The notes: generated by a model from the letters alone, not told the origin. A stretch of DNA of 64,000 nucleotides from an uncultured Sphingobacteriales bacterium (GCA_963844325.1 CAWJNV010000002.1:3897824-3961823), one strand, 5' to 3'; positions 20,125-34,478 are shown, counted from the first letter of the stretch. Made by a program: numbers and translations.

Positions 20125-20502
20125 TCATCTCCCGTGTTTTTTCTCGAAGTACGCGTAGGCTTCGTTGAGCTTCTGGGTGACGGCTTCGGCGAACTGCTTC
20201 TTTTGCGGCTCGTTGTGGAACCGGTCGGGGTGGTATTTCTTCATCATCGTTTTGTAGGCCCGCTTAATCTCTTCGAATGACGCATTGGCGGGGAGTTCGA
20301 GGGCGGCGTAGTAGCCCGCTTCGGGACCGGCGGGTGGAGGTGGGGTTGCCGGCGGGGGATTGGTCGGGCCCGACCTGGGTTGCCAATCGGCGTAATTTTG
20401 CGAACTTGTATCGAAGGCATCTGGCCCCTGCGGCGTGGGCAGGTCCGATGACAGTAAACTGGCCCGCACCAGGCGGCCGAAGCGGCGGAAGAGGGAAGAC
20501 AT
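20125..20502 (-). CDS. J-domain (DnaJ-like) protein
   Basis: C-terminal YYAALELPANASFEEIKRAYKTMMKKYHPDR is a J-domain with the HPD motif. The N-terminal region is proline-rich. Confidence 0.8.
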   Translation of the reverse strand: MSSLFRRFGRLVRASLLSSDLPTPQGPDAFDTSSQNYADWQPRSGPTNPPPATPPPPAGPEAGYYAALELPANASFEEIKRAYKTMMKKYHPDRFHNEPQKKQFAEAVTQKLNEAYAYFEKKHGR

Positions 20503-20569: not shown

Positions 20570-21238
20570 ATGGGATTTCTCAGCCGTTTCCTCGACGTAT
20601 TCCGATCAAATGTGAACAGTGCCCTCGACCGGGCTGAGGACCCGGAAAAGATGATCAAACTGATGGTGCTCGAAATGGAGGAATCCGTGGAGAAGGCCAA
20701 CCATGCGCTGGCTTCGGCCATGGGCACCGAAAAACGCCTCGAACGGCAGTACCAGGACATGGTAAAGGGCTCCGAGGACATGGAGAACAAGGCCCTTACG
20801 GCGCTGCGGGCCAACAATGAACACCTGGCCAAGGTGGCCCTGACCAAAAAGGGCCAGCTCGACACGCAGGCCACGCAGTACAAGCAAATGCACGAAAATG
20901 CCGTTGCCACCACCCGCCAGCTCAAGGAACAGATCGAACAACTGAAATCCAAACTACAGGACGCCCGCATGAAAGAAGCCACCCTCATTGCCCGGAGCAA
21001 AAACGCCAAGGCCCAGGCCGAAATGGCCAAACAACTGAGCGGCATGGGCAACCATTCCTTCGCCAAGTTCGACAAGTACGAGGAAAAAATCCTCAAGCTC
21101 GAAGCTGACGCCCAGGCCCTTACCGAACTCTCGTCGGCCGAATCCACCCGCGACGTGGATTACCAGTTCAAACAACTCGAACAAAACACCAAGGTGGACG
21201 ACGAACTGGCCCGTCTCAAGGCGCTGCTCAACAAGTAA
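20570..21238 (+). CDS. pspA: PspA/IM30-family protein
   Basis: MGFLSRFLDVFRSNVNSALDRAEDPEKMIKLMVLEMEESVEKA... is the canonical PspA/Vipp1 N-terminus. The coiled-coil continues through the ORF. Confidence 0.8.
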   Translation: MGFLSRFLDVFRSNVNSALDRAEDPEKMIKLMVLEMEESVEKANHALASAMGTEKRLERQYQDMVKGSEDMENKALTALRANNEHLAKVALTKKGQLDTQATQYKQMHENAVATTRQLKEQIEQLKSKLQDARMKEATLIARSKNAKAQAEMAKQLSGMGNHSFAKFDKYEEKILKLEADAQALTELSSAESTRDVDYQFKQLEQNTKVDDELARLKALLNK

Positions 21239-21325
21239 GGATCAGGATTCTCAGAATTAGAGGATGAACAGGATCAGATACCCACGTGGTGTTGTCGAGC
21301 AGTGATCCGGTAATGCCAGTCCCGC

Positions 21326-21410
21326 CACAAAGGCACGAAGACACCAGGGAACACGAAGGTTTGCCGGCCGCAGCCGCCTTTGTGTTCCCTGGTGTCTTCG
21401 TGTTTTTGTG
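21326..21410. terminator. Bidirectional Rho-independent terminator between pspA and the convergent dehydrogenase gene
   Basis: cacaaaggcacgaagacaccagggaacacgaagg / loop / cctttgtgttccctggtgtcttcgtg, followed by tttttg. The stem is about 26 bp with one mismatch. Confidence 0.65.
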
Positions 21411-21419
21411 ACGTATTCT

Positions 21420-23585
21420 CTACCTGACGAGTACTACCTTGCCGGTCAGTGGTTTGCCTTTTTGCCCAACGGTAACCGTGTAGGTTCCTCTTTTCAGGTT
21501 CCCCACGAACAAGTCCACCTGATTCATGCCCGCCGCAACGGACCGGGTCGTGCTCAGCGCACTCCGGCCCTGGGCGTCGGTGAGCTGGAGGGATACCTGT
21601 GCTGCTTCGGGAGCCGCGAAGCTTACCCGGACCCAGTCGGTGCCCGGGTTGGGATGCACGCGCAGGCTGCCCTCCGTAGCGGACGCTTCCCCGGCAGTTT
21701 CCGCAACCGCCCGTGCGCCGGTGCCGGCCCGGAACAAGGCAGTGGTTGGAATGGCTCTTTTCGCAATGCCCGGCCCGGCGTAACTTACGTTGAGTACCTC
21801 CCCTCCCGTCTTTTCGAAGAAGGTTACTGTCAGGGCGTGTTTGCCCGCGCGCAACCGGATGGTTCCGGCGCGTTCACGGGGGCCGTGCAGCCCGTCGTTG
21901 TTCACCACCAGGGTATTGCCGATGTAGAGCCTGGAGCCGTCGTCGGAGGAGGTATAAAAGGTGTACAGCCCATTGGCGGGTACTTGCACGTAGCCCGTGA
22001 ACCGGAAGGCGAAATTGTCGCTGCGGTTGCGGGGCGCCAGCGAGAAATTAGTTACGGTACCCGTTTTCAGAGGAGTCAGACCGGAGAAATCAGGTAAGAC
22101 ATTCCAGTTGCCTTCGTAGTAAGTGTAATTGAGCCCGCCTGCCGTACTGGCGGGGTTCTCCGGGGAACGCAGGTAGGATAACTTATAGATCGTATGGCTG
22201 TAGTCATCGGAAATGAGCATATCCCCCTGGTGATCGATTGCCACGTCAACCGGCCGGCCGAGTACGCTCTGGGTTGCCTCATTGAGAAAACCCTTTACCA
22301 GGTCAATCTGGCCGGTGGGCGTCTGCGTTGCGCTGTTCCAGGGGAAAAAAGCTACCTTGTACCCCGTTTTCTTCGTTCGGTTCCAGGAACCGTGCATCCC
22401 TACGGCCGCTCCGGCCCGGTACCCATTGGCAAAGGAAGTGCTCTGCAGGAAGGTCAGGCCCAGCGGGGCCGAATGGGCCTGGATGCCCCGGTTGATGCGC
22501 GTCATGCCGTTGCAATCTACCTGCCCATTGCGGTTGAATTCGTAGTCACGGTCAAAGGGCATGTTTACCAGGGTGTTGTCGGGGTTAGGGTTACAAAAGG
22601 GCCAGCCGTAATTCCCCCCATCCTGCACGTAGGTAAACTCCTCGGGCGGATGATTGTCGACGTAACTCTGCAGCACCTTGCCGTAGTCATTGGTGCCGTC
22701 TCCGTTGAAATCACGGTTGAAGGGGTAGGCGATATTGTCGCGGTTGTTTACCACTGCCCACAGCCGGTTCGTGCCCGGCACGAAGGCAAGCCCCTCCGCA
22801 TTGCGCAGGCCCTGGGCAAACAGGCGCCGGCCGGTGCCATCTGCATTGTATTGGTAGATGGCGGCGCGGATGGGATCACTCTGCGAATCGGCCGAGCAAG
22901 CATTGCAGGAAGAAGCAATGGAGACGTACAGTTTATGGTTGCCGTCGAGGGCGATGTTTTTTAACCGGTGGCGGAAAGTCCCGTTCAGTTCGGGCGTGCT
23001 GGCAACGGGCAGACCCGTCACTACAATCTGCCGGTGGTGGGCCGTCAGGTCGCCCGCATTGTACACGTAGCGGTTGATCTGGTGGCTTTCGGCAATGTAC
23101 ACGTAGGTGGTAGTGCCAATTTGGTGAAAAACGATATCGTGCGGAAAGGAGAGGCCCGTAGCAAAATCGGAGATCAGCGGAGCGCCGCCGCCGTTAGGCC
23201 GTACCAGGAGCACTTTGCCGGTAGTGGGTTGTGAGACGAGCAGGTCCCCGTTGGGCGCAATTGCCATAAAACGCGGCTGGTTCACGCGGGCATAGACCGA
23301 GATGGTAAAATCGGGCGGTACCGTCAGGTAACGGTCCACGTGGAAGGGAGTCCAACGCATACTGGCCGGTACCTGCACTTTCACGGATACGGAAGCCGCC
23401 GGCGGGCTTTGGGCGTAACCCGGCCCGGCCAACAGCACCCATACAAGAGATAGATACGGCAATAGACGCACCCAACGGTGCTCCCGGGGAAGGGGTGATA
23501 CGGAGGCAGGAGTGTCCATAACGGTAAAGATTTGGTGAGGAAAGGAAGCAGAGAGGGTTAAAAGCGTAACCAGCCGGATCACCAC
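21420..23585 (-). CDS. PQQ-dependent sugar (glucose/sorbosone-type) dehydrogenase with PA14 domain and T9SS C-terminal sorting domain
   Basis: 721 aa with a signal peptide. Beta-propeller blocks (NGDLLVSQPTTGKV, GRPVDVAIDHQGDMLISD) indicate the dehydrogenase. The PA14-like segment is GLYTFYTSSDDGSRLYIG. The C-terminus ...LRVHPNPGTDWVRVSF...GTYTVTV...KVVLVR indicates a T9SS CTD. Confidence 0.65.
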   Translation of the reverse strand: MVIRLVTLLTLSASFPHQIFTVMDTPASVSPLPREHRWVRLLPYLSLVWVLLAGPGYAQSPPAASVSVKVQVPASMRWTPFHVDRYLTVPPDFTISVYARVNQPRFMAIAPNGDLLVSQPTTGKVLLVRPNGGGAPLISDFATGLSFPHDIVFHQIGTTTYVYIAESHQINRYVYNAGDLTAHHRQIVVTGLPVASTPELNGTFRHRLKNIALDGNHKLYVSIASSCNACSADSQSDPIRAAIYQYNADGTGRRLFAQGLRNAEGLAFVPGTNRLWAVVNNRDNIAYPFNRDFNGDGTNDYGKVLQSYVDNHPPEEFTYVQDGGNYGWPFCNPNPDNTLVNMPFDRDYEFNRNGQVDCNGMTRINRGIQAHSAPLGLTFLQSTSFANGYRAGAAVGMHGSWNRTKKTGYKVAFFPWNSATQTPTGQIDLVKGFLNEATQSVLGRPVDVAIDHQGDMLISDDYSHTIYKLSYLRSPENPASTAGGLNYTYYEGNWNVLPDFSGLTPLKTGTVTNFSLAPRNRSDNFAFRFTGYVQVPANGLYTFYTSSDDGSRLYIGNTLVVNNDGLHGPRERAGTIRLRAGKHALTVTFFEKTGGEVLNVSYAGPGIAKRAIPTTALFRAGTGARAVAETAGEASATEGSLRVHPNPGTDWVRVSFAAPEAAQVSLQLTDAQGRSALSTTRSVAAGMNQVDLFVGNLKRGTYTVTVGQKGKPLTGKVVLVR

Positions 23586-24139
23586 CCTGGGTAGGTGCCC
23601 GGCACGGGTTCAGCGGCGTTACCGCCCTTTCCGGTCAATAAGGAAAAGCGGCCCTGACGGGAAGTACGAAAACACAGTTTGGCAAAAGGAGCTAACGTTG
23701 CCGTTAAGCACGGCCCTTATCACAAAAAGATGTTGAGCAGCAAGATCGTAGCCAGGAGGTATACCGCAATGACGGTGCGGAAGAGAGGTAAAGCAGACAT
23801 TCTGGAGGCTAGCCCAAAGCACGCTGGTCAGCCGTAAGCCTACCCGTGAATACGCGTATTCGAAATCAGAGAACCCAACTCAGTACTTACACTTGCTGGA
23901 GCACAAAAAAAACCTGGCTGAATGTGCACAGCTTTTAAGTATAAATCAATACCTACTTTTAGGTATTTTTCTACCCGACGTCTTCCTGATCACCCCGCTG
24001 GCCCGGTACGCCAGGCACCACGGGCTGCCCAGATGAACCCGGTACGCAGCCTGTGCAGCGGACAGCCCCGCGGTGAAGGCCGGCCGGGATTGCGGGGCTT
24101 GCCGGTCCTTTCGTATCTTCGGGCAAAATTTTGCCCCTT

Positions 24140-24763: not shown

Positions 24764-24968
24764 CCGGATGGATCGGGATTAATCGGATTAAAGGATTAGC
24801 AGGATTACGACGACCGAAATCCTCTTAATCTTTTAATCCGGTTAATCCCAATCCTAATCCGGTTAATCTCAATCCGGTTAATCCCGATCCTAATCCGGTT
24901 AATCTCAATCCTAATCCGGTTAATCCCGATCCATCCGGTTAATCCTTTAATCTTGTTAATCCTGATCC
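24735..24968. repeat. 8-bp-word palindrome (ttaatcnn / nngattaa) spanning the 3' ends of two convergent genes
   Basis: gatcaggattaacaagattaaaggattaa (24736-24765) is the reverse complement of ttaatcctttaatcttgttaatcctgatc (24941-24965). Between them lie about 20 tandem 8-bp units (ccggttaatcccaatcctaat...). Confidence 0.8.
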
Positions 24969-27900
24969 TGGCTTCCTGACCCCTTCGGCAATCACCTCGC
25001 GGATGGCGTTGAGTCCTTCGCCGAGGGTGGAGAGTTGGACCATGAGCTGGCCCATCTGGTCGCCGGAGGCGAGGCCCTTGAACTGCTGGTTTTTGCGGAA
25101 AGTCGTTTTGATCTCCGTCCAGCGGGCTTTTTCCTCCTCGGTCAGCAGGCCGTTCAGTTCCTTGAACTTGAGCAGGTTGGCTTCCGCGCCGGTGGTCAGC
25201 GTCTGGGCCTCGTTTTCGTAGTGCGAAAGGATCAGCGTGCGCAGTTCGGCCTCGTTCATGATGGCTACCACCTTGCCGGCAATCTTGTTCATGTTCCGGT
25301 ACGAACCCTGGAGCTTGAACGGCGGTTCGGTACGGAACTCATCGGCTTGAGCCGCCGAATGGATGTACTGGAGGTTGTTGCGCAGGATGAAGTCGCGCAC
25401 CACGAACAGCTTCTTGAGCACGGCCACGTATTCGTTCAGTTCTTCGGCCGCGTAGCCCGCGTCAAATTCCAGCCCGTCCTGGCTATCCGTTTCGGCCAGT
25501 TTGATCAACGTGTAAATGTCCTTCTGGCTCCTCGTGAGCAGCTTGTTGAGGGCCGGGTTGGCCGTGAGGCAGTTTTCGATGTAGCTGAGTTTAAAAATGC
25601 TTTCCGTGTCGCCGATGATGTCACCCAGGTTGTAGGTGTCGGCCCGGTTGGCCAGCATGTCGGGAATTTTGAACTTTTCGCCGCTCTCCGTGTAGGGGTT
25701 GCCGGCCATCACCACGCACACTTTCTTGCCGCGCAGGTCGTAGGTTTTGGGCTTGCCCTGGTAGACGCCCTCAATGCGGCGCTGTCCGTCGCAGAGGGAA
25801 ATGAATTTTTGCAGGAATTCCGGGTTGCAGTGCTGGATGTCGTCCACGTAGATCATCACGTTGTCGCCCATCTCGAAGGCCAGGTTCAGCTTGTTCATCT
25901 CCTCGCGGGCCCCGGCGTTGGGGGCTTCGGCGGGGTCGAGCGACGTAACCCGGTGCCCGATGGCCGGCCCGTTGATCTTCATGAAGATGAGGCCGAGCCG
26001 GTTGGCGACGTACTCCATGAGGGTGGTTTTGCCGTAGCCCGGCGGCGAAATGAGCAGCAGCATGCCCATCAGGTCGGTGCGTTTTTCGGCGCCCACCACC
26101 CCGATCTGCTTGGCGAGGTTGTCGCCGATGAGGGGCAGGTAGAGCTGGTCAATGAGCTTGTTGCGCACGAACGAGGTCAGCACGCGGGGCGTGAATTCCG
26201 CCAGGCGCATCTCCTTCCGCAGCCCTTCGGCCAGCGATTTTTTGCGTTCGTTGAATTGCAGGTAACGCGGTACGGTTTGCCCGGCAAAGCCGGAAAGCCT
26301 TGCCAGGAATGCGTTGAAGTGCAGCGCGTAGGCGTGGTCCCGGATGACCGGGTGCGTGCCGAGCAGGCCCGTCACGGTGCGGCGGGTAGTGGCCGGCACG
26401 ACGCGGCCGCCGTCGAAGCTGCCCAGAAAAAGCAGGGCGGCCGTTTCGTCCACGTAGTCGGCGGCGTCTTCGATCTTGGTGAGGCACTGGCCCACGAAAG
26501 CCTTTACCCAGTGGCGGGCCATGGCGAACCGTTCGGGCGGGGCGGCTTCCAGTTGGGCCAAAGACTGCCGGAAGGTGGTTTCGTGTCCCTGGGCGTGCAG
26601 CGACTCGTGGAAGGCTTCGTACAGCCCGGCGGCTTCGGCGCTGATGATGAACGCATCGCCGCGGGTCAGTTCTTCGAACAGGTAGTCGGCGGCCGGTCCG
26701 GCCAGCGCCGGGTCGAGCAGTTTGGTTTCGGCCACGAACGTTTCCAGTTCATGCCGGAGGTCGGCCAGCACGCTGCCGAAGTCGCGGGTGTGCGGGAATA
26801 CCTTGCGGATGACGCCGATGCCTTTGATCTGGTGGTGCAGCAGCGCCTTGCGGTCGGCGGGAACGAAGCTCTGCCAGTACAACGCGGCCAGGGCCCGGGC
26901 CGGGGCCGCAAAACGCAAGAGGTCGATCTGCCCGTCCAGGTCGAGCAGGGCTTTGAGGAGCAGGGCGGCGTCGTGGTCGTGCACGCCCTTGACGTAGCCT
27001 TCCACGTAACGCGGGGCCATGTAGGCCTGCACGTACGCCAGCAGGGCATCACCCGAAAGCCCGGCCAGTTGGGCCCTGGAGAGATTGTCGCCGGGAGCCG
27101 GTTTGTGGCCGGCCGGCAGGGACCCGGTGCCCGGCGCGGCGGTGGCCTGCCCGTAGATCTGGTAAGCCAGGTACTCGGCCCGGTACACGTCCCCGTTTTC
27201 AGAAACCAGTTCCTGGCCCCACAGGTCGCGGTTGGTGAGCAGGTCGGGGTGGGAGAGGGGTTCGTAGAAGTTGGTGCCGGTCAGGTGGTAATACATTTCC
27301 CCGTCGCGGGTAAGGATGGTCAGGTCCAGCGGCTGGGTGTTCACCGAAAAGGCGTGCTTGCCCAGGCGGATCACGTTCTGGCCGTCCACGAACAAGTCCT
27401 GGCGGTCTTTAAGCTGCCGCACGGCGTCTTCCCGAATGGTTTTGAGGCGGCTCTCGATCTCGTCGGCCTTCACGGGGTCTTCCATCGCCGTGAGCTGCGC
27501 CACGATGTCGCGCACCTTGCCGATCATCAGGTCGCCGGCGAAGTAGCCGTTGATCTCGTTGACGGTCTTGAAGCCGGCCACGCGGTTGGCGATGCCCTTC
27601 AGGATGCGGTCGGCGGCCGACAGCAGCGACTGGGCCCGTTTGTTGCGGGCGTCGGTGAGGACCTGCTTTTTGGCCTCGAAGGCGCTGTACGTCTCTTCGC
27701 GTTTGCCGGCCAGCAGCGTAATGAACTCGTCGAACTCGGCAAACCTGCCTTCCAGTTCTTCCAGTTGCACCATCAGCTTGGTCAGGTACTCGTCGCACCT
27801 GGCGGGGGTGTCGCACACGTCGAGGTAGTTGATGATGCCCTGGGCAATGAGCTTGAGCTGGGCGGCAAATTCGGCCTGGGCCTCCGTGCCGAGCAGGTCC

Positions 27901-29939
27901 CGCTTCCGCGACTTGAGGGTGGCCTTGGCCCCGTTCAACTGGGCGTAAATACCCGAAATGCCGTCGATGATGGCCGTGGTCTGGGTGGAATCGTCGATCT
28001 TGAGGTTGCTCACGATTTCGATGAGCAGGTCGAGTTCCTTGCCGGTGGCGTCGAGTTCGGCTTCGCGTTTCTGGGCGTCGGCCACCTTGGTGATGCCGGG
28101 GATGCCCGCCTGCCGGGTTTCTACTTGCTGCCGGTAGTACTTGAGCGAATCAGGGTTGAGCAGGAAGGTAACCGTGTCGGCAGAGAGTTGCCGGGTCTGG
28201 GCTTCCAGGACTTCTTCCTGGGCGGCCACGACCGCCAGGTCCACGTACCGCAGGTCTTTGAGCGAAATCACCTCGCCGCGCAGCCCGCGCAGCGACGCCA
28301 GGGCCTGCACGAACTTATCGACCTGGTCAAAGGGCGTTTTTTTGATCCCTCCCACCAGGGCTTTTACCTGCCCCACCACCGCGTCGGTCCGGGCCTGCGT
28401 GTTCTTACGCACCCGCACCACCTTTTCGAATTCCTCGATGGCCGACGAGGCGGCGGTACGAATCTCCGCAATGGCCGCATTGAGGTTAAACGCCTCTTCG
28501 GACTTGAGCCAGTAGTAGGTGTCCTGCATGCCGCCGGTCTTTTTCACCAGGTCGGAGTACAAGGTGGCGTACACGTCCTCGCGGCCCACCAGGTTGATCA
28601 CGTCGTGGGCCTCGGCCATGGCCCGCACAATGTCCTTGTTGCCGATCTTGTAGAGGTAGTTGTCGGTGCTCACGGGCGGCACGTAGTCGGCCCCCACGAA
28701 GGGCGTCTGCCACACCTGGATGAGGTGGTTCTTGCCCGGCTCCTCCTGGGAACGGAAGTAGCAGAGTTCGCCGTTGCCGAACAGCGAAAAGCCGTTGCAC
28801 AGCACCGGGTTCTCCACTTTCTGCTCGATGAGGTTGTAGGGCAGCAGCACGTAGGTGCCCGTTTCGAGGTTGTGGAACACGTACAGCACGTCCTCGCCGT
28901 TGGGCGACGGAATGGTTTTTTCGAACTGCATCCCGCCGGGCAGGTTGTCGAACTGCTTCACGCCGCCGCTCTGGAGGTAGTAGCCGTTGGCAAAGAGCAG
29001 GCCCTGGCCGTCGGGCAGCAGCACGCAGGCTTCGCCGATGGCGTCGATGCGGAGGGCCTTTTTGAGCTTGTCGTTGAAAACGATGTAGCGGTAGTCCTTT
29101 TCCTGGTAGGGCCGCACTTTGAGCAGGATCAGGTTGCCCAGGCCCGCGTAGAAAAATTCGGCGTCGTCGAGCGACTGTTCGGCGTGTTCTACTTTTTCGG
29201 AAAAAATACCCTCGCCGGTGTCGGTGTTGTCTTCGACCTTGATGGTGAGGTCGCCGCCGACGGTTTCGACGAAAATGCGGTCTTCGACGGAAATGTGGGG
29301 GTGCTTGCCCTTGCGCTGGTAGTCGCGCCGGGTGCGTTTCCACTCAAATTCCTGCTGGGGCGGGAACTTGAATTCGTGGTCGCTGCGGTTGTCGAGGTAG
29401 TGCAGCCCGTCGCCCTTGATGAGCCACTTAAAGGTTTTGATGTCGCGCACGCCCTTGCCGATGCGGAACACCATGAACAGGTGCGGCCCGATGATGGCAA
29501 ACTTGGTGAAGGTGGTGAGCTTGTAGTACTTGTAGAGTTCTTCTACCTGCCCCTCAAACTCGGCGTTGCGGATCAGGTCGGGGGGTTGCTGGTGGAAGGA
29601 GTGGTCGCCCTTGTCGAACGAGAACACGCTGAACACGTCCGACAGGTCAATTTCTGACTTGAGTCCCAGGTGCACGTTGTAGCCGAAGATGAACAGGCGG
29701 CCCACCGGGATCATGTCCTGGGGAATGCAGTTGTGTTCGGTAACGATCCGGTTGTTGGCAATCAGTTTGGTTTCGATGGAGCCGAATACCTCCTTGCGGG
29801 CCGCGTTGAGCCCTTTGAGCCGGTCGCGCAGGTCACCGGCGTGGCTTTCGAGCCGCTTGCGGATGATCTCGTATGTGCCGCTTTCGAGCTGGACGGCGGG
29901 GGCAGGGGTGGGCAGGGTGGAGGTATCGGTGGCGGCCAT
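24939..29939 (-). CDS. Giant (1666-aa) multidomain P-loop/AAA+ ATPase: N-terminal beta-rich region, long coiled-coil, C-terminal AAA+ module
   Basis: Walker A LLLISPPGYGKTTLMEY; Walker B NVMIYVDDIQH; sensor-1-like VCVVMAGNPY; Arg-containing KIPDMLANRADTYNL. The central ~600 aa is strongly coiled-coil-like. The likely start is ATG at 29939 (MAATDTSTLP). The ORF-track start at 30017 would extend into REP sequence. Confidence 0.7.
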   Translation of the reverse strand: MAATDTSTLPTPAPAVQLESGTYEIIRKRLESHAGDLRDRLKGLNAARKEVFGSIETKLIANNRIVTEHNCIPQDMIPVGRLFIFGYNVHLGLKSEIDLSDVFSVFSFDKGDHSFHQQPPDLIRNAEFEGQVEELYKYYKLTTFTKFAIIGPHLFMVFRIGKGVRDIKTFKWLIKGDGLHYLDNRSDHEFKFPPQQEFEWKRTRRDYQRKGKHPHISVEDRIFVETVGGDLTIKVEDNTDTGEGIFSEKVEHAEQSLDDAEFFYAGLGNLILLKVRPYQEKDYRYIVFNDKLKKALRIDAIGEACVLLPDGQGLLFANGYYLQSGGVKQFDNLPGGMQFEKTIPSPNGEDVLYVFHNLETGTYVLLPYNLIEQKVENPVLCNGFSLFGNGELCYFRSQEEPGKNHLIQVWQTPFVGADYVPPVSTDNYLYKIGNKDIVRAMAEAHDVINLVGREDVYATLYSDLVKKTGGMQDTYYWLKSEEAFNLNAAIAEIRTAASSAIEEFEKVVRVRKNTQARTDAVVGQVKALVGGIKKTPFDQVDKFVQALASLRGLRGEVISLKDLRYVDLAVVAAQEEVLEAQTRQLSADTVTFLLNPDSLKYYRQQVETRQAGIPGITKVADAQKREAELDATGKELDLLIEIVSNLKIDDSTQTTAIIDGISGIYAQLNGAKATLKSRKRDLLGTEAQAEFAAQLKLIAQGIINYLDVCDTPARCDEYLTKLMVQLEELEGRFAEFDEFITLLAGKREETYSAFEAKKQVLTDARNKRAQSLLSAADRILKGIANRVAGFKTVNEINGYFAGDLMIGKVRDIVAQLTAMEDPVKADEIESRLKTIREDAVRQLKDRQDLFVDGQNVIRLGKHAFSVNTQPLDLTILTRDGEMYYHLTGTNFYEPLSHPDLLTNRDLWGQELVSENGDVYRAEYLAYQIYGQATAAPGTGSLPAGHKPAPGDNLSRAQLAGLSGDALLAYVQAYMAPRYVEGYVKGVHDHDAALLLKALLDLDGQIDLLRFAAPARALAALYWQSFVPADRKALLHHQIKGIGVIRKVFPHTRDFGSVLADLRHELETFVAETKLLDPALAGPAADYLFEELTRGDAFIISAEAAGLYEAFHESLHAQGHETTFRQSLAQLEAAPPERFAMARHWVKAFVGQCLTKIEDAADYVDETAALLFLGSFDGGRVVPATTRRTVTGLLGTHPVIRDHAYALHFNAFLARLSGFAGQTVPRYLQFNERKKSLAEGLRKEMRLAEFTPRVLTSFVRNKLIDQLYLPLIGDNLAKQIGVVGAEKRTDLMGMLLLISPPGYGKTTLMEYVANRLGLIFMKINGPAIGHRVTSLDPAEAPNAGAREEMNKLNLAFEMGDNVMIYVDDIQHCNPEFLQKFISLCDGQRRIEGVYQGKPKTYDLRGKKVCVVMAGNPYTESGEKFKIPDMLANRADTYNLGDIIGDTESIFKLSYIENCLTANPALNKLLTRSQKDIYTLIKLAETDSQDGLEFDAGYAAEELNEYVAVLKKLFVVRDFILRNNLQYIHSAAQADEFRTEPPFKLQGSYRNMNKIAGKVVAIMNEAELRTLILSHYENEAQTLTTGAEANLLKFKELNGLLTEEEKARWTEIKTTFRKNQQFKGLASGDQMGQLMVQLSTLGEGLNAIREVIAEGVRKPGSGLTRLKD

Positions 29940-29954
29940 TGGAATTACTGGTTG

Positions 29955-30060
29955 ATATTTGGGATAGGGTTGAAACCCTATCCTATGGATATTGGGCGCA
30001 GAAGCTTGTATCTTCAACCATCTCGTTGGTAGGATAGGGTTTCAACACTATCCTACTGAT
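29955..30060. repeat. REP-like palindromic units (ggatagggtt-aaaccctatcc) downstream of RAYT gene
   Basis: gggatagggttgaaaccctatcctatgg and ggtaggatagggtttcaacactatcctactg are separated by ggatattgggcgcagaagcttg. Confidence 0.75.
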
Positions 30061-30075
30061 CGGAGACGGTGGGGG

Positions 30076-30516
30076 CTACGGTTCAATGCCAAGGGGAATA
30101 ATGGATGTCCTCAGCGATTCGAGTTCGGCTTCGAAGCCTACCGTTTTGTGGTGCGTCTCCTGGTTCTTGATGTAATTCCGCACGCGTTGTACGTTGGATG
30201 GGCTTACTGAAAAAGCGGCGTAACCATCCTGCCACTCGAATGGCCCCTCCATCAAGCCTTGCCGGTTCAGCCAGTGGGACGAAGCACCTTTGATGTTTTT
30301 GGCAATCTGGCTGATTGAAAGACTGGGCGGCACCGAAAACAGGCAGTGTACGTGATCCTCCACGCCGTTGATGAAATCCAGCTGATACCCCTTCTGCGCC
30401 GCGATGATCCTGATCTGTTTATACAAGGGAATGCGAATTGACTTGTGCAAGATGGGCTCCCGGTTCTTGGTTGCCCAGATCAGGTGAACCCAGAGTGCAG
30501 TAAAAGTTTGTGGCAT
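30076..30516 (-). CDS. IS200/IS605-like Y1 (HUH) transposase, REP-associated tyrosine transposase (RAYT)
   Basis: MPQTFTALWVHLIWATKNREPIL...EDHVHCLFSVPP (HuH motif)...conserved Tyr region (QDGYAAFSV). It is about 147 aa and flanked on both sides by inverted REP clusters. Confidence 0.8.
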   Translation of the reverse strand: MPQTFTALWVHLIWATKNREPILHKSIRIPLYKQIRIIAAQKGYQLDFINGVEDHVHCLFSVPPSLSISQIAKNIKGASSHWLNRQGLMEGPFEWQDGYAAFSVSPSNVQRVRNYIKNQETHHKTVGFEAELESLRTSIIPLGIEP

Positions 30517-30609
30517 TTGCAGGAATAGAAAAGAGTTTGGAACAAGGTTTTGACCCTGTTTCATTCATTAAAGCGAACGTTGAAAAGAAGGAGTCGAATG
30601 TGCTGTGAT

Positions 30610-30880
30610 TGAGTAGGATAGGGTTCGGGGAATAGGAATAGGGTTTGGATATGGGATAGGGTTAAAACCCTATCCTATGGATATTGGGGAGGAAGCTTGC
30701 TAGGTTGGTCATAGCTCAGGTAGGATAGCAGGATAGGGTTTAAACCCTATCCTGCCAATGGGCAAATTGAACCCGCGAACCCAATATCCATAGGATAGGG
30801 TTTTAACCCTATCCCATATCCAAACCCTATCCAAAAAAAACATCCCGCCAACGCTACTCGCCCCGAACCCTATTCCCCAA
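30610..30880. repeat. REP/BIME-like cluster (ggatagggtt-aaaccctatcc units) upstream of RAYT gene
   Basis: At least four units: gggatagggttaaaaccctatcctatgg, caggatagggtttaaaccctatcctg, ataggatagggttttaaccctatcc and others. The same spacer motif ggatattggg..gaagcttg occurs as in the downstream cluster. Confidence 0.8.
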
Positions 30881-30892
30881 ATCCCCCCAGCC

Positions 30893-33109
30893 CTACAACA
30901 CCGACGTCGCCTTCCGTTCCGAAATTCCGCTCTTCTCGGCCGTATCCAGCAATTCGGCCAGCACGCCGCGGAGGCCGTCGTCGTGGGTCATCGTGATCAT
31001 TTTCACGATCAGGGCCGAGATCGTCAGGTTCTTGATGTCCTCCGATTTGAGGTTGAACTGGCCGACGAACTTCTTGAGGTTGTCGCCCAGGCTCACGTCC
31101 TTGCCGTTGGCGTCCTTGCCGTTGCCGTTGCCGAGCAGGGCCGTCTTCACGCCCTTGATCACTTCGCTATTGTTGACGAAGCTGTCCACCGACTTGCCCT
31201 TGGTGATGGCACCCATGATGTTTTCGTAGAACATCGTTTCGCCGCCCACGATGCTGATGTTGGAAGCCTTCAGCGCCTCGCTGATCACGCTGGCCTGGGC
31301 GTTGGCAATGTCCTTCTGAATGTTGATCTGGGCCAGGGCAATGTCGGTTTCCTGCTGCACGCGCAGCTTGAACTCCTCGTGCTCCTTGCCCACCCCGTCG
31401 AGCTTTTTCATGGCGTTGGCTTTGGCTTCGATGCCCAGGGCGTCGGCCAGGCCCTTCTTCTCGCGGACGTTGGCTTCGGCCAGGCCTTCTTTTTCGAGGG
31501 CTTCGGCTTTCGATTGCGTTACCTTGGCTTCGGCCAGGCCCTTCTTCTCCAGCACGCCGGCCTCCACCAGTCCTTTCTTTTCCATGACCCCGGCTTCCAC
31601 AAGGCCCTGCTTTTCGTCCGCTTCAATTTCGGCCTGCCGCTTCACTTTGATGCCGGTGGCTTCGGCAATGGCCCGCTTTTCGATGATGACCGCGTCCACC
31701 AGGCCCTGCTTTTCGTTGGCGTCGGCCTTGGCTTCCAGCACCCGTACTTCGGCCAGCCCCTTGGCGGCTTCTTCCTTTACCCGGGCGTCGGCCAGGAGCT
31801 TCTTGGCTTCGGCCGTCTTTTCGGCGGCCTGCCGGTCGGCGTTGGCCTGGATGATGGATTGTTCGGCGCGTAGTTCGGCGGACCGCTTGTCGGCTTCGGC
31901 CGACTTGATCTGCTGCACGAGGGCTTCTTCGGCGACTTGCTCGGCGTGCTTGATGGCCACCGACTTTTCGCGTTCGGCCGTGGCAAAGGCCCGGGCGTCT
32001 TTGATGAGTTCTTCTTCCACCACCACGGCCTTTTCCACCACTACGCGTTCGCGGATCACTTCCTGGATGTTCTTGCGTTCTTCTTCGAGGGCTTTTTCTT
32101 TTTCAATGCGGGCCAGTTCCACGATGCGTTCCCGTTCGTTGGCTTCGAGCATCTGTTCGCGTTTCACCCGTTCGTTTTCCACGGCCTCGGTTTTCTCCTT
32201 GCTCTTCTGGGCCACCACGATCTGGCGCAGCTTGTTCTGCTCGGCCACCTGGAGTTCTTCTTCCGTCTGGATGCGGGCCCGTTGCGATTTAAGCCGTTCT
32301 TCCTGGGTAACTTTCTCGGTTTCGGCTTCTTCGCGGGCTTTGATGGAGGCAATTTCCCGCTTCTGCTTTTCTTCCTTTTCGGCCAGCTGCTTGTTGAGTT
32401 CGAGGATGGCTTCGCGGGCCTCCACGTTCTGCTTGGTGATCACTTTTTCCTCCTCGCGGCGGATCAGGTTGGCCTTGATCTTCTGCTGGGCGGTGAGTTC
32501 GGTGATCTTCTTGATGCCTTCCGAGTCGAGGATGTTGTCGGCGTTGAGGAAGGTGATGGGCGTCTGTTCGAGGTAGTCGATGGCGCAGTCGTCGAGCACG
32601 TAGCCGTTGAGGTCGCGGCCGATGGCTTCGAGGATTTCGTTCTTGAACTTCTCGCGGGAGTCGTAGAGTTCCACGAAGTCGAACCGTTTGCCCACGGTTT
32701 TGAGGGCTTCGGAGAACTTGGCTTCGAAGAGTTGCACCATCTGGCCGGGGTCGGAGGCCCGGGCGCAGCCGATGGACTGGGCTACTTTCTCCACGTCTTC
32801 CTTGGTTTTGTTGACCCGCACGAAGAACGCCACCTTGATGTCGGCCCGCATGTTGTCCTTGCAGATGAGGCCTTCCTTGCCCACGCGGTTGATCTCAATG
32901 CTCTTGAGGGAGGTCTCCATGATTTCGAGCTTGTGCAGCACCGGAAACACGAACATGCCGTTGAAGCTCACGGTCAGGTCGCCGAAGCCGGTACGCACCA
33001 GGGCGGCACCCTGCTGTACTTTCTTGTAACAGTTGAAAATCAGGGCAATGAAGCCGAACAGGAACACGGCCAGGATGACCGTAACCGCAATGGTAAGATT
33101 TGCAAGCAT
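30893..33109 (-). CDS. Flotillin / SPFH (band 7) domain protein, YqiK-like, with long coiled-coil and EA-repeat region
   Basis: 738 aa. It has an N-terminal TM helix, then an SPFH domain (ALVRTGFGDLTVSFNGMFVFPVLHKLEIM...) and extended E/A/K-rich coiled-coil with flotillin-type repeats. Confidence 0.8.
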   Translation of the reverse strand: MLANLTIAVTVILAVFLFGFIALIFNCYKKVQQGAALVRTGFGDLTVSFNGMFVFPVLHKLEIMETSLKSIEINRVGKEGLICKDNMRADIKVAFFVRVNKTKEDVEKVAQSIGCARASDPGQMVQLFEAKFSEALKTVGKRFDFVELYDSREKFKNEILEAIGRDLNGYVLDDCAIDYLEQTPITFLNADNILDSEGIKKITELTAQQKIKANLIRREEEKVITKQNVEAREAILELNKQLAEKEEKQKREIASIKAREEAETEKVTQEERLKSQRARIQTEEELQVAEQNKLRQIVVAQKSKEKTEAVENERVKREQMLEANERERIVELARIEKEKALEEERKNIQEVIRERVVVEKAVVVEEELIKDARAFATAEREKSVAIKHAEQVAEEALVQQIKSAEADKRSAELRAEQSIIQANADRQAAEKTAEAKKLLADARVKEEAAKGLAEVRVLEAKADANEKQGLVDAVIIEKRAIAEATGIKVKRQAEIEADEKQGLVEAGVMEKKGLVEAGVLEKKGLAEAKVTQSKAEALEKEGLAEANVREKKGLADALGIEAKANAMKKLDGVGKEHEEFKLRVQQETDIALAQINIQKDIANAQASVISEALKASNISIVGGETMFYENIMGAITKGKSVDSFVNNSEVIKGVKTALLGNGNGKDANGKDVSLGDNLKKFVGQFNLKSEDIKNLTISALIVKMITMTHDDGLRGVLAELLDTAEKSGISERKATSVL

Positions 33110-33111
33110 AG

Positions 33112-33278
33112 CGTATGGGAAAATGGAATTTGATTGCTCGAAGGGAATGGTACACGGGATAATGGTGCACTGATTGGTTATGATGATTATGGTTTATTAT
33201 GATCTTTTCTCCGAACCCTTTTTTAAATCAGTCCCAATCATACTCATCATAATCAATCCGTGTACCATCAAACGGGTA
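33112..33278. repeat. 8-bp-word palindrome (gattatga family) inside the yqiJ-flotillin operon
   Basis: ggtacacgggataatggtgcactgattggttatgatgattatggtttattatgatc ... cataatcaatccgtgtaccatcaaacgggtac. A second copy of this family is at 51565-51698. Confidence 0.7.
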
Positions 33279-33935
33279 CTATTTAACCAGCGTACTGTCG
33301 CCGGTGTCGTAGGGCTCAATGAGAAAAGTGTGGTCTTTTTTATCGTAGTCGATGATCAGTCCTTTTTCGCCGCGGGCCATGCGGTTGCCGGCGGTGGTAC
33401 GTACGGTGAGCAGGAGGGGGGCTCCGCGCTGAATGGGCACTTCGGCCTGCCCGATCTTTTTGTCATTGACCGGCAGCACCACCGTACACGTCCGGCCGAT
33501 CACCTGTTGGTTGCCTGCCACCTCGTTGGGGTCTTCGCGAAAAATCCACTTGAGGGGGCTGGTGACCAGTTTGGTCAGGAGCAGGCTCACCAGCAGGTTG
33601 GGTACCAAGAGCAGCAGGCTCATCCACGCGGGACCGGGCAGGTAGTAGTTGCCCAGGATGGCGCCCACCCACAGGAACAGGGACGTGAAGCTGATCAGGA
33701 TCATGAAGGGCACCGAGCCTACGTTGAAAAAGGCCAGCACCACGCCCCACCAGCCCGCCTGGAGGTCCACCTCCACGTTGACGCCTTTGTCTACGTGCAG
33801 GTCGTGATGGATCTGGAACTGTCCCAGGTCGAGCACCCCCACGATGACCGAAGCCCAGTACAGCAGCACCAGGATCAGCAGGAGCGTAAAGGGAATGTTC
33901 ACCGGCGCGAAAGCGAAGTGTAGCAGTTCAATCAT
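33279..33935 (-). CDS. NfeD-like/YqiJ-family inner-membrane protein (TM helices + C-terminal OB-fold)
   Basis: 218 aa. It has multiple TM helices, then VIGRTCTVVLPVNDKKIGQAEVPIQRGAPLLLTVRT (an NfeD short-form OB domain). This is the usual partner of flotillin (the yqiJ-yqiK arrangement). Confidence 0.65.
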   Translation of the reverse strand: MIELLHFAFAPVNIPFTLLLILVLLYWASVIVGVLDLGQFQIHHDLHVDKGVNVEVDLQAGWWGVVLAFFNVGSVPFMILISFTSLFLWVGAILGNYYLPGPAWMSLLLLVPNLLVSLLLTKLVTSPLKWIFREDPNEVAGNQQVIGRTCTVVLPVNDKKIGQAEVPIQRGAPLLLTVRTTAGNRMARGEKGLIIDYDKKDHTFLIEPYDTGDSTLVK

Positions 33936-34115
33936 ACGCTTGGGAGTAGAGTAGGCGGGGGGTAAAAACAGGGGTCACGGTAAAATGGACAAATAAAAGC
34001 TTTTCCGCGATCACAGTTCAGGCAATGGCAGGCAATACCTTACAGGCGGCCTTTTTTATCCTTGATGGCAGGCCGGGCGGATCGTAACCCTAAGGTAATC
34101 AAAAAATTATTCGTG

Positions 34116-34478
34116 TCAATCCTCCGGGTAGGGCAGGAACACAAAATTGGTAAAATCGTAATCTATTACGAAAAGGCAGCAGTATTCGTCGGGGTCCTTA
34201 TACGCCGCCTTGAAGGCTTCCTGGTCTTCCACCAGGCCGCGCTGCACGAATTCGTCGAGGAAAGAGGCGTAGAAGTTCCATTCCAGCTTCAGGTCGCGCC
34301 GGTGGATGAGCAGCTGGCCGGTGACTTGTTCCACCCGGCTGATGGGAAAAACGGGATAATCTGAAAAGCCCCGCTTGCGGATGGCGTACGAGGCTTCCTT
34401 CAACGTGTCGGACACCACCACGAAGTCCTTGGTAATGGTGCCCAGGTATTTGCCGTTCAGTTCGGGATCGTTGACCAT
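34116..34478 (-). CDS. Hypothetical protein (120 aa), immediately upstream of yqiJ-like gene
   Basis: ORF with no motifs recognised. Its start codon abuts the palindrome at 34479. Confidence 0.35.
   Translation of the reverse strand: MVNDPELNGKYLGTITKDFVVVSDTLKEASYAIRKRGFSDYPVFPISRVEQVTGQLLIHRRDLKLEWNFYASFLDEFVQRGLVEDQEAFKAAYKDPDEYCCLFVIDYDFTNFVFLPYPED

Follow-up and report, generated by a model that had tools for sequence, protein, structure and literature searches.

Why should a 1666-residue ATPase be encoded beside the genes for an NfeD-like membrane protein and a flotillin? The question is raised by a stretch of DNA from an uncultured Sphingobacteriales bacterium (GCA_963844325.1 CAWJNV010000002.1:3897824-3961823), hereafter the window, meaning the whole 64-kb stretch that was analyzed; the module studied lies on its minus strand at 24939-34478. 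We find that the locus is an abbreviated form of the PspA-associated flotillin module, consisting of a YqiJ-family NfeD protein, a YqiK-type flotillin and a soluble DUF3686 ATPase. The genes and elements of this region are as follows.

34116-34478, minus strand: 120-aa hypothetical protein, with a homologue at the same position solely in the closest relative (locus L082).
33279-33935, minus strand: YqiJ/YuaF-type (NfeD2) membrane protein, 218 aa, assigned by hhalign against Escherichia coli YqiJ.
30893-33109, minus strand: YqiK-type flotillin, 738 aa, assigned by BLASTP and hhalign against E. coli YqiK.
30076-30564, minus strand: Y1 transposase, 162 aa, IS200-like or associated with repetitive extragenic palindromes (REP), matching Pfam Y1_Tnp and NCBIfam IS200.
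29962-30814, no strand: five REP palindromes, matched at no more than one mismatch.
24939-29939, minus strand: DUF3686-family AAA+ ATPase, 1666 aa, intact and full length, matching Pfam DUF3686, DUF7902 and AAA.

The first-pass annotation, made from the sequence of the window, had listed four minus-strand open reading frames (ORFs), including an ATPase of 1666 aa; all four are found at the positions it gave, and the transposase is a fifth co-directional gene that it overlooked. The ATPase ORF opens mechanically at a TTG at 30017, and its 1666-aa product is counted from the ATG at 29939, which is favored as the start because the N termini of homologues align there and because REP elements occupy 29962-30053. 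A 1540-aa plus-strand ORF at 25035-29657 was rejected as a shadow ORF antisense to the GC-rich ATPase gene, its relatives elsewhere being fragmented antisense ORFs. When the operon was scanned for sigma-70 promoters and for terminators, nothing rose above chance; the scan does not cover Bacteroidota promoters.

Are these genes partners beyond this one genome? Scanning GTDB with one genome per species gave 80 ATPase loci, drawn from Bacteroidota, Planctomycetota, Verrucomicrobiota, Desulfobacterota, Clostridia, Kiritimatiellota, Omnitrophota and Fibrobacterota, and 75 of them have usable upstream sequence. A flotillin gene lies immediately upstream of the ATPase gene, on the same strand, in 70 of these 75 informative loci, and a YqiJ-like gene is also detectable upstream of the flotillin in 55/80. 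In the reverse search, which took the flotillin as its starting point in metagenome contigs, an ATPase gene lies downstream at 62 of 64 informative loci, and a YqiJ gene upstream at 68 of 71. The order flotillin then ATPase is kept even in six out of six distant loci whose ATPases are only ~40% identical, spanning Pseudomonadota, Actinomycetota and Deinococcota (Pseudomonas fluorescens SBW25 plasmid pQBR103, Streptomyces, Deinococcus, Proteus mirabilis, Vibrio campbellii and Nonomuraea); at four of these loci a similarity to YqiJ can also be detected. Pairwise identities of the ATPases, with a median of 49% across phyla, correlate with those of the flotillins (r = 0.80, Mantel p = 0.001), which fits inheritance and transfer as a unit. 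YqiJ, flotillin and ATPase genes thus cluster far beyond chance, in a linkage that is near-obligate across phyla. The proposal that the giant ATPase is the dedicated partner of an NfeD-flotillin pair within a conserved operon is borne out by these counts (70/75, 62/64 and 6/6), and its homologues are not scattered away from SPFH and NfeD neighbors. That unit had been drawn to include the 120-aa gene. Homologues of this gene, and of the gene for RlmD, occur in 0/80 ATPase loci, and the protein has no Pfam, NCBIfam or PADLOC match and no significant PDB sequence match; it is lineage-specific and lies outside the conserved module.

How secure are the identities of the two membrane proteins? Searched directly, neither the flotillin nor the YqiJ-like protein of the window has a significant Pfam, NCBIfam or PDB sequence match. 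Family profiles were therefore made from homologues at related loci and compared with YqiJ and YqiK taken from E. coli MG1655. The flotillin aligns to YqiK over residues 10-442 by BLASTP (7e-40), and its family profile does so by hhalign at a probability of 100% (E = 3.4e-40); the profile also matches the SPFH protein QmcA (8Z5G), and 3 of 26 flotillin homologues match Pfam Band_7. The YqiJ-like gene lies directly upstream on the same strand, and the family profile of its product matches E. coli YqiJ at 97.4% probability (E = 1.5e-11) in an alignment that spans the C-terminal region. Among its homologues, 7/26 match Pfam YqiJ_N and 1/26 matches NfeD, and the profile has a weak match, in the right region, to the C-terminal domain of YuaF (2K14, E = 0.32). 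From the YqiK and YqiJ homology and these profile matches, we assign 33279-33935 and 30893-33109 to a predicted yqiJK-type NfeD2-flotillin pair. The NfeD-like and flotillin identities given earlier therefore stand by homology to YqiJ and YqiK, but not by any direct significant match to Pfam or NCBIfam.

The flotillin comprises an N-terminal transmembrane (TM) segment (hydrophobic residues 5-27), an SPFH domain, a coiled coil rich in Glu, Ala and Lys, and a C-terminal part. Since lysines follow the single N-terminal hydrophobic segment, the sequence suggests that the bulk of the protein is cytoplasmic. In the alignment the YqiJ-like protein shows three hydrophobic segments; TM1 is followed by an acidic loop, and the C terminus probably forms a beta domain. 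In its homologues the loop between hydrophobic segments 1 and 2 is strongly acidic and often poly-(Asp-x), as in DIDVDVDVDVDVDV of locus L011, and may bind cations or polyamines.

The NfeD2-SPFH2 pair was described by Hinderhofer et al. 2009, where the ATPase is not mentioned. The yqiJK pair of E. coli and the yuaFG/floT pair of Bacillus subtilis, both of the SPFH2 type, encode homologous proteins in the same gene order. Unlike the present locus, E. coli yqiJK has no ATPase gene downstream, and our flotillin is ~185 aa longer than YqiK; its last ~165 aa are conserved within the family, with invariant columns, and do not align to YqiK.

What kind of protein is the ATPase? Pfam finds DUF3686 at residues 36-476 (2e-185, 616.9 bits against a cutoff of 25), DUF7902 at residues 597-680 (9e-26, 90.3 bits against 26) and AAA at residues 1294-1414 (1.9e-6, 28.8 bits against 21.2). 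More than 6000 homologues exist, named 'DNA repair ATPase' by NCBI and 'MoxR-like ATPase' by JGI. When the N-terminal 560 residues are compared with 1.84 billion representatives clustered at 50% identity, 265 clusters match at E <= 1e-30, and full-length members are uniformly ~1,600-1,900 aa; the family is compact and its architecture fixed. One full-length homologue (P0072), 57% identical, is listed in a protein set of eukaryotes (eukprot g33011.t1), where contamination by bacteria or a recent transfer is the likeliest source. AlphaFold2 (AF2) models and sequence motifs divide the protein into four parts.

28707-29768, minus strand: beta-propeller of 6-7 blades, residues 58-411, from the AF2 model of residues 1-560 (mean predicted local distance difference test (pLDDT) score 86.3).
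27372-28658, minus strand: helical stalk, residues 428-856, containing DUF7902 (597-680), with helices 428-559 in the AF2 model.
26190-27371, minus strand: small beta domain (~857-894) and globular all-helical domain (~920-1250), from the AF2 model.
25260-26189, minus strand: AAA+ module, residues ~1251-1560, from motifs and the AF2 model.

A conserved helix (residues 18-52) precedes the propeller in the model. A Foldseek search of the propeller against the PDB returns generic WD40-like propellers at a probability of ~1 and no specific relative. Residues 560-839 are probably helical, judging from their sequence. The second model, covering residues 840-1666 (pLDDT 82 overall, mostly 85-95 in the beta and helical domains), contains the small beta domain, the globular helical domain, ~330 residues in size, and the AAA+ module, lid and C-terminal helices included. 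The ~600 aa of coiled coil described in the first-pass annotation thus resolve into a ~430-aa helical stalk followed by these two domains.

The catalytic motifs are intact. Walker A (GYGKTT) is translated from 26022-26039 and Walker B (DDIQH) from 25830-25844, and N1414 occupies sensor-1, with R1432 as the candidate Arg finger and R1548 (GSYR1548) as the candidate sensor-2. Translation confirms the GYGKTT and DDIQH motifs reported before, and an alignment of 11 ATPase homologues leaves Walker A, the DD of Walker B, N1414, N1431-R1432-A1433-D1434 and GSYR1548 invariant. Conservation along the protein is highest in this AAA+ core and lowest in the helical domain.

The AAA+ module had been placed in the classic clade, and the AF2 model points elsewhere. 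A beta-hairpin (residues 1389-1400) precedes sensor-1, between helix 3 and the sensor-1 strand, and Foldseek against the PDB ranks RuvB chains, ClpA/ClpC-D2 and NorQ first, with NorQ/CbbQ and dynein among the best matches. Classic-clade proteins score somewhat lower (NVL 11.5, Metallosphaera sedula Vps4 11.2, Cdc48 10.8, yeast Vps4/p97 10.4). From the hairpin and this ranking, the module appears to belong to the pre-sensor-1-hairpin superclade, with a stronger resemblance to RuvB, Clp-D2 and MoxR than to the classic clade; the hairpin before sensor-1 is common to RuvB, the Clp/Hsp100 D2 modules and MoxR proteins (NorQ/CbbQ), its best structural matches.

Could the protein, then, be a RuvB-like motor for DNA repair or DNA translocation, its adjacency to flotillin reflecting either membrane anchoring of a DNA transaction or no link at all? 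Besides the RuvB chains at the head of the PDB matches, weak Pfam RuvB_N and NCBIfam ruvB matches fall around Walker A, the GPA motif after beta2 reads as RuvB-like, and the aromatic pore loop is absent. Pfam detects no DNA-binding domain in the ATPase, and no repair gene recurs as a neighbor among the ATPase loci; the database name 'DNA repair ATPase' is without support, the label stemming from Pfam DUF3686. We consider a DNA motor improbable.

Is the operon continuous in the window? The ATPase gene had been described as lying directly downstream of the flotillin gene; here the two are separated by 959 nt (29940-30898), filled by the Y1 transposase gene and the five REP palindromes. Copies of the palindrome GGATAGGGTTnnAACCCTATCC stand at 29962-29983, 30032-30053, 30654-30675, 30731-30752 and 30793-30814, flanking the transposase gene; at no more than one mismatch there are five matches against 0 expected (100 shuffles), and the 64-kb window holds no other copies. 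The transposase matches Pfam Y1_Tnp (1.1e-29). Its family-level naming is ambiguous, because the NCBIfam IS200 model passes its cutoff (80.5 bits against 55) while REP_Tyr_transpos stays below (28.7 against 80). Together, the gene at 30076-30564 and the five palindromes present the Y1 transposase fold and flanking REP palindromes by which a REP-associated tyrosine transposase (RAYT) is recognized. The closest relative, L082, has no transposase and only 227 nt in the same gap. The REP/RAYT element, a REPtron, is a selfish, recent insertion at the locus that damaged no gene.

Y1 transposase genes also occupy the flotillin-ATPase spacer of L018 (Saprospiraceae) and L041 (Roseibacillus), which suggests that it is a recurrent landing site for them. 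The spacer measures 0.5-2.4 kb in many Bacteroidota (L002, L014, L025, L030, L042 and L049), with small, unrelated same-strand genes inside. These spacer genes vary among DMP19-like, DUF3997, DUF3592-like, esterase and Y1 transposase genes and unknowns. A conserved extra gene in the gap was ruled out, as the ORFs there are variable and unrelated; the spacer is a variable slot within an otherwise rigid operon.

Is PspA part of the system? In 20 Bacteroidota loci, a CesT/Tir-like gene (PF22550, 4e-54) and a PspA/IM30 gene (4e-41) precede the trio in the order CesT-like, PspA, YqiJ, flotillin, ATPase, with a divergent regulator gene containing helix-turn-helix (HTH) and S24-like domains upstream. 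PspA linkage recurs on pQBR103 (L163, 84437-97641), where the trio follows a YjfI-PspA polyamine-type operon. On this plasmid the trio is joined onto a co-directional cluster of twelve genes, which runs through YjfI, PspA, rhomboid, DUF2491, DUF350, DUF1190 and glutathionylspermidine-synthase genes.

The window itself carries one PspA gene, near the 3′ end of the ATPase gene.

20570-21238, plus strand: PspA/IM30 paralogue (Pfam PspA_IM30, 7e-46), convergent with the ATPase gene.

This gene lies 3.7 kb beyond the ATPase stop; in L082 the distance is ~0.9 kb, at the same relative position. It was considered as an operon member and rejected, as a different paralogue on the opposite strand; it is possible that its product is a functional neighbor of the ATPase. 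A convergent PspA gene also follows the ATPase gene in L012. A J-domain gene (20125-20502, minus strand) is divergent from the PspA gene of the window, and the pair is kept beside the ATPase gene in L082. We call the locus abbreviated because the CesT/Tir-PspA dyad is missing and the only PspA is this other paralogue on the opposite strand.

Has the association been reported before? Ravi et al. 2024 (mSystems, PMC11237479; preprint 2020), a comparative genomics study of the PspA membrane-stress system, already described this operon. Its full form there comprises a regulator, CesT/Tir, PspA, a 3TM YqiJ/YuaF protein, a Band-7 and flotillin protein, and a protein combining a beta-propeller, a coiled coil and AAA+; abbreviated operons, which have just the flotillin and YqiJ/YuaF, some with the ATPase as well, are more widespread and may act with PspA encoded elsewhere. 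The operon is read as serving ATP-dependent membrane dynamics, and the functional analogy to ESCRT-III and Vps4 is proposed in that work. The example given is ANH61663.1 of Dokdonia donghaensis, and the layout in the supplementary table is that of our six-gene loci; the paper gives no counts, AAA+ clade, structure or experiment.

In the window these three core proteins recur with gene order and orientation unchanged: a YqiK-type flotillin, an adjacent 3TM YqiJ/YuaF-type protein and, downstream of the flotillin on the same strand, an AAA+ ATPase that bears an N-terminal beta-propeller and a coiled coil. It differs from the full operon in that the CesT-PspA dyad and the divergent regulator are absent, a REP/RAYT element is inserted, and the PspA present is another paralogue, whose gene converges on that of the ATPase. 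The association is thus already known, and the module of the window is an ordinary example of the abbreviated form, if a slightly disrupted one. The first-pass annotation regarded the ATPase as lying outside the described pair and the system as undescribed; this claim to novelty fails because the association, abbreviated form included, was published in 2024. The literature searched contains no mention of DUF3686/PF12458, nor of 'DNA repair ATPase' together with flotillin, and no unrelated role has been established for the family. A preprint on a flotillin-associated rhodopsin was set aside as unrelated to the ATPase.

What might the ATPase do for its partners? We propose that it uses ATP to remodel a flotillin/PspA membrane scaffold in envelope stress, a reading that we hold tentatively and judge nearly as apt to be right as wrong. 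The flotillin, together with YqiJ, would assemble into an oligomeric scaffold of the SPFH type on the cytoplasmic, inner side of the membrane. The ATPase would oligomerize through its AAA+ module, reach the scaffold by its helical stalk and bind with its beta-propeller, its target being the family-specific C-terminal part of the flotillin or, where present, the co-encoded PspA polymer. ATP hydrolysis would then drive the scaffold to be assembled, disassembled or reshaped during envelope stress. Within this proposal we infer the physical interaction, the oligomeric state, the substrate and the stress-response role; the earlier idea of a mechanochemical remodeling partner is a reasonable one.

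The ATPase would thereby be a functional analogue of Vps4 acting on ESCRT-III, or of FtsH in the HflK/C complex, without homology to either ATPase. In HflK/C-FtsH, an AAA+ ATPase works at the membrane in functional coupling with an SPFH scaffold, a cage that encloses it. That scaffold faces the periplasm, and FtsH, a protease of the classic AAA+ clade, is anchored in the membrane, whereas the ATPase described here is soluble, has no protease domain and falls in another clade; homology is limited to the AAA+ fold. The likeness to ESCRT-III and Vps4 is that both the six-gene form and pQBR103 encode an AAA+ ATPase alongside PspA, a member of the ESCRT-III superfamily. The ATPase is nevertheless not Vps4, having no MIT domain by Pfam (its N terminus is the propeller) and no classic-clade features, and it is not PspF, having no sigma-54 activator or HTH domain. 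In B. subtilis, an SPFH protein is reported to be required for bringing PspA to the membrane, and a 2025 review notes that bacteria appear to lack a Vps4-like regulator of PspA. More specifically, the DUF3686 ATPase could be this missing bacterial Vps4 counterpart, using its propeller and stalk to dock on flotillin domes and carrying out ATP-driven disassembly or reshaping of flotillin polymers, ESCRT-III-like PspA polymers or both; so specific a reading is doubtful.

Several observations weigh against scaffold remodeling. The AAA+ module has no aromatic pore-loop-1 motif and in its place carries the stretch NGPAIGHxVTSLDP, which resembles the SGPxLE of RuvB, so there is no evident sign of classical polypeptide threading. 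In Walker B, DD stands in place of DE, which may make hydrolysis slow and switch-like. Simple Vps4-like threading is disfavored because of these two features together with the RuvB/MoxR-like fold. Five of the 75 informative ATPase loci (L001, L003, L023, L028 and L036) have no adjacent flotillin or YqiJ gene. No CesT-like or S24-HTH homologue occurs anywhere in the window, so the CesT-PspA dyad is absent, and the PspA of the window is ~26% identical to the operonic PspAs, which share ~60% among themselves. With the REP/RAYT element inserted, the ATPase gene may no longer be transcribed together with the flotillin gene. Finally, the literature searched contains no experiment on any member of the ATPase family.

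The three features that speak against threading (pore loop, Walker B and fold) leave room for a DNA-related role and for a chaperone or switch. In the latter case the ATPase would be a MoxR/NorQ-like assembly chaperone, or a nucleotide-gated tether, that uses the flotillin platform to mature or insert another membrane complex. The conserved neighbors, however, include no VWA partner, the usual companion of MoxR, and the helix-2 insert is not visible in the AF2 model. Nor does the operon hold a conserved candidate client gene, the genes in the flotillin-ATPase gap being variable. On this balance we think a chaperone or tether unlikely.

Might the trio instead be a mobile conflict or anti-phage system, with flotillin and YqiJ as membrane effector and the ATPase as sensor or regulator? 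The module is spread patchily over many phyla at ~50% identity, suggesting lateral transfer, and it sits on megaplasmids and plasmids (pQBR103, Hymenobacter, Streptomyces and Deinococcus). Phage-type regulators adjoin it, HTH+S24-like in Bacteroidota and CII-like in bacteria of the Planctomycetes-Verrucomicrobia-Chlamydiae (PVC) group. The CII-like genes (PF06892, Phage_CP76) stand upstream of the trio at L032:6176-6688 and in 6 other PVC-group loci, from Verrucomicrobiota and Kiritimatiellota, mostly on the opposite strand. The HTH+Peptidase_S24 regulator led us to consider LexA-like, SOS-inducible regulation, which was rejected because an alignment of 20 regulators has no conserved catalytic serine of the GDSM type; the divergent regulator, encoded at L007:3941-4735 and in another 19 Bacteroidota loci, probably acts as a non-cleaving sensor of S24 fold and not as a LexA-like repressor.

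The lack of this serine also argues against a defense function, as does the absence of a nuclease, toxin or other effector domain. The sole match in PADLOC-DB 2.0 is a very weak one to IetA over ~30 residues at the P-loop (E = 2e-4), and no component has a full-length match. Conservation across phyla is very high for a 1,650-aa protein, unlike that of fast-evolving defense genes, and the window and L082 share stable synteny among housekeeping genes such as RlmD. Altogether, we give defense little credence.

L082 is close enough to show what has changed around the module: its ATPase is 91% identical, with 89.6% nucleotide identity over the full gene length. Relative to L082, the window has an extra 2.8-kb segment (21275-24097) between the ATPase region and PspA, which contains one further gene.

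21420-23585, minus strand: 721-aa protein with PA14 and GSDH-like domains and a type IX secretion system C-terminal sorting domain.

What does the module mean for the bacteria that carry it? Scaffold remodeling by the ATPase would bear on how bacterial flotillin scaffolds and PspA/ESCRT-III-like polymers are built and dismantled. The ATPase is an obvious candidate, being found nearly always with flotillin and YqiJ, often with PspA, and at ~50% identity in at least nine phyla. To the published neighborhood description we add linkage numbers in both directions, domain boundaries and a placement among the AAA+ clades. The module is carried by tractable hosts, namely P. fluorescens SBW25 with pQBR103, P. 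mirabilis, V. campbellii and Flavobacteriia. If the ATPase is indeed the bacterial counterpart of Vps4, it would be the first known remodeler of an SPFH scaffold.

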